Of a DNA stretch of 64,000 nucleotides, positions 26,833 through 27,236 are shown in pieces (positions within the stretch are counted from its first letter, which is position 1; each line of letters begins with the position of its first letter). This stretch comes from Escherichia coli (lineage in GTDB: Bacteria; Pseudomonadota; Gammaproteobacteria; Enterobacterales; Enterobacteriaceae), in NCBI RefSeq assembly GCF_030013595.1, contig NZ_CP122768.1. One strand, written 5' to 3'. The notes beneath the pieces were generated by a model. It had not been told where the DNA came from, ran no database searches, and saw only the letters and a list, made by a program, of their open reading frames with translations. Position numbers and translations under genes: made by a program.

Positions 26833-27236
26833 GTTTTGTAACCTGTTGTTAATTACATCCGATCTCACCGCGTGGGGCATGGATGGGGCAAACTCACTCA
26901 ATTTCTGGTTTAAAATGGAAACCTGATTCTGAAAGTTTTCTGCCATCCACGATCCGTAAACGCGATAAACCCTCTGTTCATCAGAGTGTCTCATTTGACA
27001 CATCACCACGTCGGATGTTGTTACGACCACAGACGCAACAGTAACGTTTGGATAATTTAATCTTTGTTGATGTTTTTATTCATATTCCGGGCAATGGAAA
27101 TAATTAGGCATAATTGTGTCACTGGAATAGAGGTTTCTTGTGGCGCATGTGGAAGGAGCGTCTAAGGACAAGACATATGCGGCTGGTGATGAATAAAGGC
27201 GTAGCACGTCGAATGCAAGAATGTGCTGCGTCTGGC

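Follow-up and report, generated by a model that had tools for sequence, protein, structure and literature searches.

A short fliE-yedL spacer in Escherichia coli as the probable scar of a decayed integrative island

In the Escherichia coli genome considered here, the gene fliE and the accessory gene yedL are separated by 404 bp which, on comparison with the same locus in other strains and species, are probably a non-functional scar left at the fliE/yedF hotspot by the decay of an integrative island, brought to their present length by deletion of an espR/yedN cassette. The spacer occupies positions 26833-27236 of the window, a term used throughout for the whole 64-kb stretch (64,000 nucleotides) that was analyzed, and according to the list of open reading frames it runs between two convergent stop codons, in agreement with the gap of about 400 bp given by a first-pass annotation of the same DNA. 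Its left flank is fliE (26518-26832, + strand), an open reading frame of 104 aa with 98% identity to K-12 fliE, and its right flank is yedL (27237-27716, - strand), encoding a 159-aa GNAT N-acetyltransferase (PF00583). The short spacer is an ordinary strain-to-strain polymorphism, already known and already sequenced, in an interval known to be hypervariable; no paper on the fliE-yedL spacer indel itself turned up in the literature library searched.

The fliE-yedF interval of K-12 consists of yedK, yedL, yedM, yedN, and intG, and a different gene is present there in Salmonella (PMC5122947). In the current record of K-12 MG1655 (NC_000913.3), in which yedM is not a separate feature, yedL ends at 2011079 and fliE at 2012700, leaving a spacer of 1,620 bp that contains a yedN pseudogene of 1,129 bp and an intG pseudogene of 279 bp, the latter overlapping the 3' end of fliE. 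The statement in the first-pass annotation that K-12 carries island genes at this position was therefore accurate, and the K-12 spacer is not as short as that of the window. The yedL-yedN-intG-fliE interval of K-12 (b1932, b4495, b1936, b1937) resembles the window in its flanking genes, in their convergent orientation, and in the integrase remnant that follows fliE, and the sequences bordering the cassette match at 96-97% identity: by blastn, positions 26518-27101 align to the fliE side of the K-12 locus (96.7% identity) and positions 27093-27716 to the yedL side (96.8% identity). The two loci differ in the approximately 1,207 bp that K-12 possesses between these blocks, comprising the 80 bp that precede yedN together with the complete pseudogene, such that the window corresponds to K-12 minus this segment.

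Conservation with other Escherichia species and with other genera downstream of fliE extends no further than 26833-26848, blastn alignments to the loci of E. whittamii, Citrobacter, and Salmonella ending at 26832-26848, and these bases mark the left edge of the island. An 11-bp stretch near this edge is absent from the window and K-12 alleles and is kept in other Escherichia species and in the allele represented by strain CFSAN061771. Positions 26851-27012 (- strand) contain the 3'-terminal 54 codons (162 bp) of a tyrosine integrase gene, the K-12 intG remnant, as recognized by protein homology and by the NCBI annotation pipeline (PGAP), which reports a partial integrase at this stretch in the nearest genome and in sister genomes. 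The fragment ends approximately 20 bp from the fliE stop codon. Escherichia sp. E1V33 has a 194-aa integrase remnant (locus L010, 8333-8917) whose C-terminus is 80% identical to the fragment at the amino acid level (E = 2e-29), and this longer remnant matches PF00589 (Phage_integrase). The entire K-12 intG remnant corresponds to an open reading frame span of 26752-27030 at approximately 97% identity, true integrase homology being confined to 26851-27012. Thus, the claim that the window lacks the K-12 island genes holds for yedN and fails for intG: tblastn and blastn searches of the 64-kb window with EspR3, EspR4, and the cassette returned no significant match, and no gene combining DUF5503 with leucine-rich repeats (LRR) lies between the integrase remnant and yedL, while the intG remnant is retained. 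The features of a degraded island are present, namely integrase-derived sequence at the island edge beside the conserved gene fliE and an insert relative to related genera that has at least five different contents among E. coli strains. No phage genes are present in the fliE-yedF interval of the window, and the designation "cryptic prophage PR-G" for intG is a label that comes from the K-12 record alone.

The extent of the island becomes apparent from outgroup loci, of which 80 were collected by a scan with FliE using one genome per species. In many of these, including Citrobacter, Phytobacter, Dryocola, and other genera, yedF and yedE come next after fliE, with a gap of 45-75 bp, as compared to a fliE-yedF distance of 1.77 kb in the window, and conservation with the window ends at approximately 26848 and resumes at approximately 28571. 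The right edge is formed by a GC-rich hairpin, TTCCCGCTGTGGGCCACAGCGGGAA, located at the yedF stop codon (28570-28594) and identified by sequence comparison and folding, which corresponds to the sole fliE/yedF hairpin of Citrobacter. Because the outgroup fliE/yedF gap holds one hairpin, and because this hairpin matches the one beside yedF in the window, the region 26849-28570, including the integrase fragment, the spacer, yedL, and yedK, is on this comparison an insert at the fliE/yedF hotspot. Insertion between fliE and what appears to be a terminator shared by the two genes would have left fliE without that hairpin. The Citrobacter, Phytobacter, and Dryocola sites share with the window the conserved flanks and the GC-rich hairpin beside yedF, but are devoid of the integrase fragment, yedL, and yedK, and it is they that represent the genuine empty state. 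The suggestion in the first-pass annotation that the window might be an empty site is consequently apt with respect to the K-12 yedN/espR cassette, but not in the sense of an unoccupied integration site: island-derived sequence remains (the integrase fragment, as well as yedL and yedK, which are also inserted and are missing from the outgroup sites), att repeats are absent, and emptier E. coli alleles are known.

Other species of Escherichia retain parts of the same integrase remnant, a longer remnant being present at locus L010, and no espR was found at this locus in the sister species sampled. Four loci of sister species (L009, L010, L011, and L014) are without yedK and hold other cargo between fliE and yedF; the cargo of the sister species comprises a conserved DUF1398 protein beside yedF, a PPC-domain lipoprotein, ZinT, and a DUF1440 (YagU-like) protein. 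Locus L011 has a copy of yedL at the same place with 80% identity, which shows that the presence of yedL at the locus predates E. coli, and thus that the deletion of yedL described below, at least, is a loss.

The point at which the cassette is missing can be placed within a few base pairs. Positions 27013-27093 (+ strand) align to K-12, O157, and ET350 immediately upstream of the cassette, and constitute an AT-rich stretch which in cassette-bearing strains precedes espR/yedN; both the gene and the 80 bp closest to it are absent here. The GC content of 27013-27101 is 36%, while that of the cassette is 34-35% and that of yedL is 46%. Positions 27102-27236, reaching to the yedL stop codon, align to sequence lying just 3' of the espR stop codon in O157 and ET350, and just 3' of yedN in K-12, with 90-98% identity between alleles. 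The left and right BLAST alignments overlap at 27094-27101, a junction that reads ATGGAAAT and that lacks a cassette of approximately 1,207-1,213 bp. The flanks join cleanly at these positions, yet the join differs from each of the occupied alleles sampled by one or two substitutions. The missing segment is exactly gene-sized, extending from 80 bp upstream of espR/yedN through the penultimate codon. The att-like direct repeats for which the first-pass annotation had recommended a search were not found: in K-12, O157, and ET350 the borders of the cassette are ATGGATAT and ATGTAATT, which are identical at five of eight positions and form neither an att-like repeat nor a target duplication, and a repeat search revealed no other repeat at the cassette borders. 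The 8-9 bp overlap between the BLAST alignments was considered as an att repeat and rejected, as it reflects merely this weak similarity between the two borders. The join itself, GGAAATAAT, is identical in the window, in Z0117EC0005, in CFSAN061771, in the enteropathogenic strain (EPEC) E2348/69, and in the yedL-less type of LZHX12, the spacers of which differ by 6-10%. Because an identical join is found in diverged alleles, a single origin of the cassette-less join is well supported.

In strains that possess it, the cassette contains an AT-rich gene encoding an LRR type III effector, espR3 or espR4, the counterpart of which in K-12 is the yedN pseudogene. EspR4 of O157 matches PF17607 (DUF5503) and LRR_4 and resembles the LRR part of SspH2/SlrP, and a sensitive blastn search with 11-base words found no espR paralogues at E. 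coli loci other than fliE-yedL. In O157:H7, fliE and the integrase remnant are followed by espR4 and a 3' fragment of yedL, then by a second integrase-side flank with espR3, and finally by full-length yedL and yedK. Enterohemorrhagic (EHEC) O157:H7 shares with the window the island, the integrase remnant, and the sequences flanking each effector gene, but carries two modules of approximately 1.96 kb, each made up of the integrase-side flank, espR, and the 3' part of yedL, whereas the window is without effector genes. Two such tandem units are present in O157:H7 (locus L006, 5413-9475) and three in ET350 (locus L005, 3569-9581). At the end of each unit a truncated yedL runs into another copy of the integrase-side flank; this illegitimate join (..CTGACC|TGTTGAC..) links a site within yedL to a position 11 bp past fliE. 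The idea that the units are repeated site-specific integrations was rejected: their left end (approximately 26844) lies near the island edge, but because the join is illegitimate and falls within yedL, plain tandem duplication is indicated. The internal units of O157:H7 and ET350 retain the 11-bp stretch that has been lost from the fliE-proximal copy. The cassette is frameshifted in K-12, A10, and ET350, and in strain 2018-05-2CC (locus L090, 2693-5101) it has been destroyed by insertions of an IS3-family element and ISApl1, so that the same locus has also decayed by an independent route.

The distribution of these arrangements was determined in a census of 5,426 complete E. coli genomes. The gene yedL is present in 1,313 of the genomes (24%), the espR/yedN cassette in 1,542, as one to three tandem units, and a contiguous espR-less join in 1,147, most of which are also without yedL. 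The layout of the window, in which the join is accompanied by an intact yedL, occurs in approximately 132 genomes (about 2%), EPEC E2348/69 included; this figure is an estimate obtained with a 1,199-bp query, a short query having joined out-of-order pieces of tandem units, and 63 of the genomes were seen individually. In roughly half of the genomes the region is absent, no match being found beyond approximately 26968 and other genes being present instead. The commonest state in E. coli is to have neither yedL nor espR. In strain 23CRST012 (locus L004, 12452-17175), homology ends at 26968 and is followed by emrE, ybcL, and ybcM (DLP12-like), the tnpA and tnpB genes of an IS200/IS605 element, and yedK.

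At least four allele classes can be distinguished among genomes with the window layout, and their spacers are 90-94% identical to one another: the class of the window (30 genomes), that of Z0117EC0005 (13 genomes), that of CFSAN061771 (at least 19 genomes), and, as the fourth, that of E2348/69. The closed genome HCP5S3_I2 is 99.8-100% identical to the window across fliE-yedK. EPEC O127:H6 strain E2348/69 (NC_011601.1) has the same architecture as the window, consisting of fliE, a partial integrase, a 404-bp spacer with the same junction, yedL, and yedK; it differs in that its spacer, belonging to another allele class, is 93.1% identical to that of the window and in that its yedK is full length. 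A further allele, found in LZHX12, IAI1, and others, is without yedL and reads fliE, 392 bp, yedK. This allele has the espR-less junction of the window and matches the leftmost 332 bp of its spacer at approximately 97% identity, and differs by an additional deletion of 603 bp (window 27165-27767) that takes out yedL.

Considered as a whole, the comparisons make removal of the cassette by deletion the likely history of the spacer. An element with a tyrosine integrase lies just downstream of fliE in Escherichia, and of that integrase E. coli retains no more than the last 54 codons; the window has the two flanks of one espR module directly joined, and lacks the gene between them. One old, illegitimate, RecA-independent deletion probably took the cassette of approximately 1.2 kb, from 80 bp upstream of the gene to its penultimate codon, between ends that share no real repeat; the cassette-less allele would have persisted and spread by homologous recombination, and in many lineages a second deletion, of 603 bp, would have removed yedL. 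Consistent with such a series, the known alleles are nested, the K-12 type having neither junction, the window type having the first, and the LZHX12 type having both. The cassette-like, AT-rich composition of the left flank (36% GC) also counts in favor of deletion, as does the decay of the cassette in other strains through frameshifts and IS insertions. In an outgroup-rooted neighbor-joining tree of the left flank, the cassette-less alleles form one clade inside cassette-bearing diversity (bootstrap values of 72% and 85%), with a polarity signal that is weak given approximately 245 mosaic sites, gaps counted as differences, and an outgroup that covers only the first 150 bp or so, the flanks at 26998-27236 being without outgroup sequence. 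Set against deletion are the recombination mosaic seen at the flank sites, the one or two extra substitutions required to derive the join from any cassette-bearing parent sampled, and the mutual divergence of the cassette-less alleles, which at 6-10% is as great as the deepest splits in E. coli and fits an ancestral cassette-free state equally well.

According to the alternative to which this last observation leads, the cassette-less join is the ancestral E. coli order (integrase remnant, approximately 230 bp of non-coding sequence, yedL), into which the espR/yedN cassette was inserted later and then tandemly duplicated; the window would then be an empty site with respect to the cassette, but not with respect to the island. 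The age and diversity of the cassette-less alleles, whose four classes include the B2 strain EPEC E2348/69 and which extend to the B1 reference strain IAI1, speak for such an order, as do the lack of espR at the locus in the sister species sampled and the gene-sized length of the absent segment, and insertion explains the sequence at the join no less well than deletion does. We nevertheless regard a late insertion as rather unlikely: the cassette is without a target-site duplication, inverted repeat, integrase, or transposase, the left flank already has the AT-rich composition of the cassette, the rooted flank tree, albeit weakly, nests the cassette-less alleles within cassette-bearing diversity, and the observed trend at the locus is one of further losses, including deletion of yedL, disruption by IS elements, and pseudogenization. 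A related proposal is that the espR cassette is a sharply bounded presence/absence polymorphism older than the E. coli phylogroups, with filled and empty alleles both kept throughout the history of the species. It is conceivable because the empty alleles differ by 6-10% yet have one junction, and it appears distinctly improbable; if true, it would imply either balancing selection on a type III effector or an unrecognized mechanism of cassette insertion. An assembly artefact, in which tandem espR/yedL repeat units have collapsed to leave a short spacer, can be almost entirely discounted: the locus is tandemly repeated in some strains and such repeats can collapse in short-read assemblies, but the layout of 404-405 bp recurs in the approximately 132 complete genomes mentioned above, among them the finished reference E2348/69, the closed genome HCP5S3_I2 is nearly or fully identical across fliE-yedK, and a collapse between repeat units would have retained a copy of espR.

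The surroundings of yedL contain a further feature, a 22-bp imperfect direct repeat (family D1) of which copy A (27126-27147, + strand) lies 89 bp past the yedL stop codon and copy B (27776-27797, + strand) lies 60 bp upstream of the yedL start codon. The copies, AATAGAGGTTTCTTGTGGCGCA and AATAGAGATTTCTTATGACGCA, are identical at 19 of 22 positions; their pattern has two matches in the 64-kb window and none in 100 shuffled sequences, and their local alignment score is 29, as compared to 14.7 +/- 2.3 in shuffles. Both copies are conserved in every yedL-bearing E. coli locus examined, and only copy B is present in Escherichia locus L011. Recombination between the repeats was considered as the route by which yedL was lost, and was rejected, as the yedL-less allele retains both copies, 47 bp apart. 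The repeat could be a regulatory site or an old cassette border, and if the espR polymorphism were indeed ancient, it could mark a border similar to that of the espR cassette. Beyond yedL, the gene yedK (27893-28495, - strand), encoding an SRAP peptidase, is truncated to 200 aa by a TGG to TAG change (W201*) within a full-length frame of 222 aa (27827-28495), the window having T at 27894 where HCP5S3_I2 and A10 have C. Because the remainder of the gene is 100% identical to that of the nearest genome, the premature stop codon is taken to be a recent mutation or a sequencing error.

Analyses of the spacer for possible functions returned little, and the description of it as non-coding in the first-pass annotation is correct in practice. 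The spacer open reading frames tested have no match in Pfam or NCBIfam, the spacer has no match in Rfam at E <= 1, and promoter and terminator scans score at or below shuffle expectation. It is accordingly very unlikely that a functional small element resides here, be it a small RNA, a regulatory site formed by the 22-bp repeat, or an 18-aa AgrD-type open reading frame. The repeat pair around yedL, significant against shuffles and conserved, favors such an element, and so does the peptide of the Z0117 class, which reaches 21.5 bits on TIGR04223 (cutoff, 19 bits) when the query is padded to 20 or more aa; weighing against it, apart from the empty Rfam and promoter searches, are the variability of the spacer, among the most variable stretches of the locus (90-94% identity as opposed to 98-99.8% for yedL), the differences between the peptides at several positions (LHSTCYAFIHHQPHMSCP in the window and LHSTCCAFIYHQPETPCL in the Z0117 class), and the absence of the region from half of E. 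coli genomes. The 18-aa open reading frame in question lies just 3' of yedL (window 27162-27218, - strand; locus L088, 3113-3169), and in genomes of the Z0117EC0005 class PGAP labels it a "cyclic lactone autoinducer peptide" (AgrD family). The TIGR04223 match is marginal, and the label is probably an annotation artefact. If the spacer is indeed the scar of a deletion, its present-day 404 bp would merely separate the convergent 3' ends of fliE and yedL.

Taken alone, the short fliE-yedL spacer matters little, and no new biology follows from it. Its consequences concern the strain, which resembles E2348/69 and about 2% of the complete E. coli genomes in having a fliE locus devoid of EspR/YedN-type LRR effector genes, and the annotation of the spacer, which should bear a partial-integrase pseudogene and no further gene. 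More generally, the "core-looking" K-12 genes of this interval, yedL and the yedN remnant, belong to the accessory cargo that a decaying island carries at the fliE/yedF hotspot, and the gene order of K-12 should be used with caution as a reference state.
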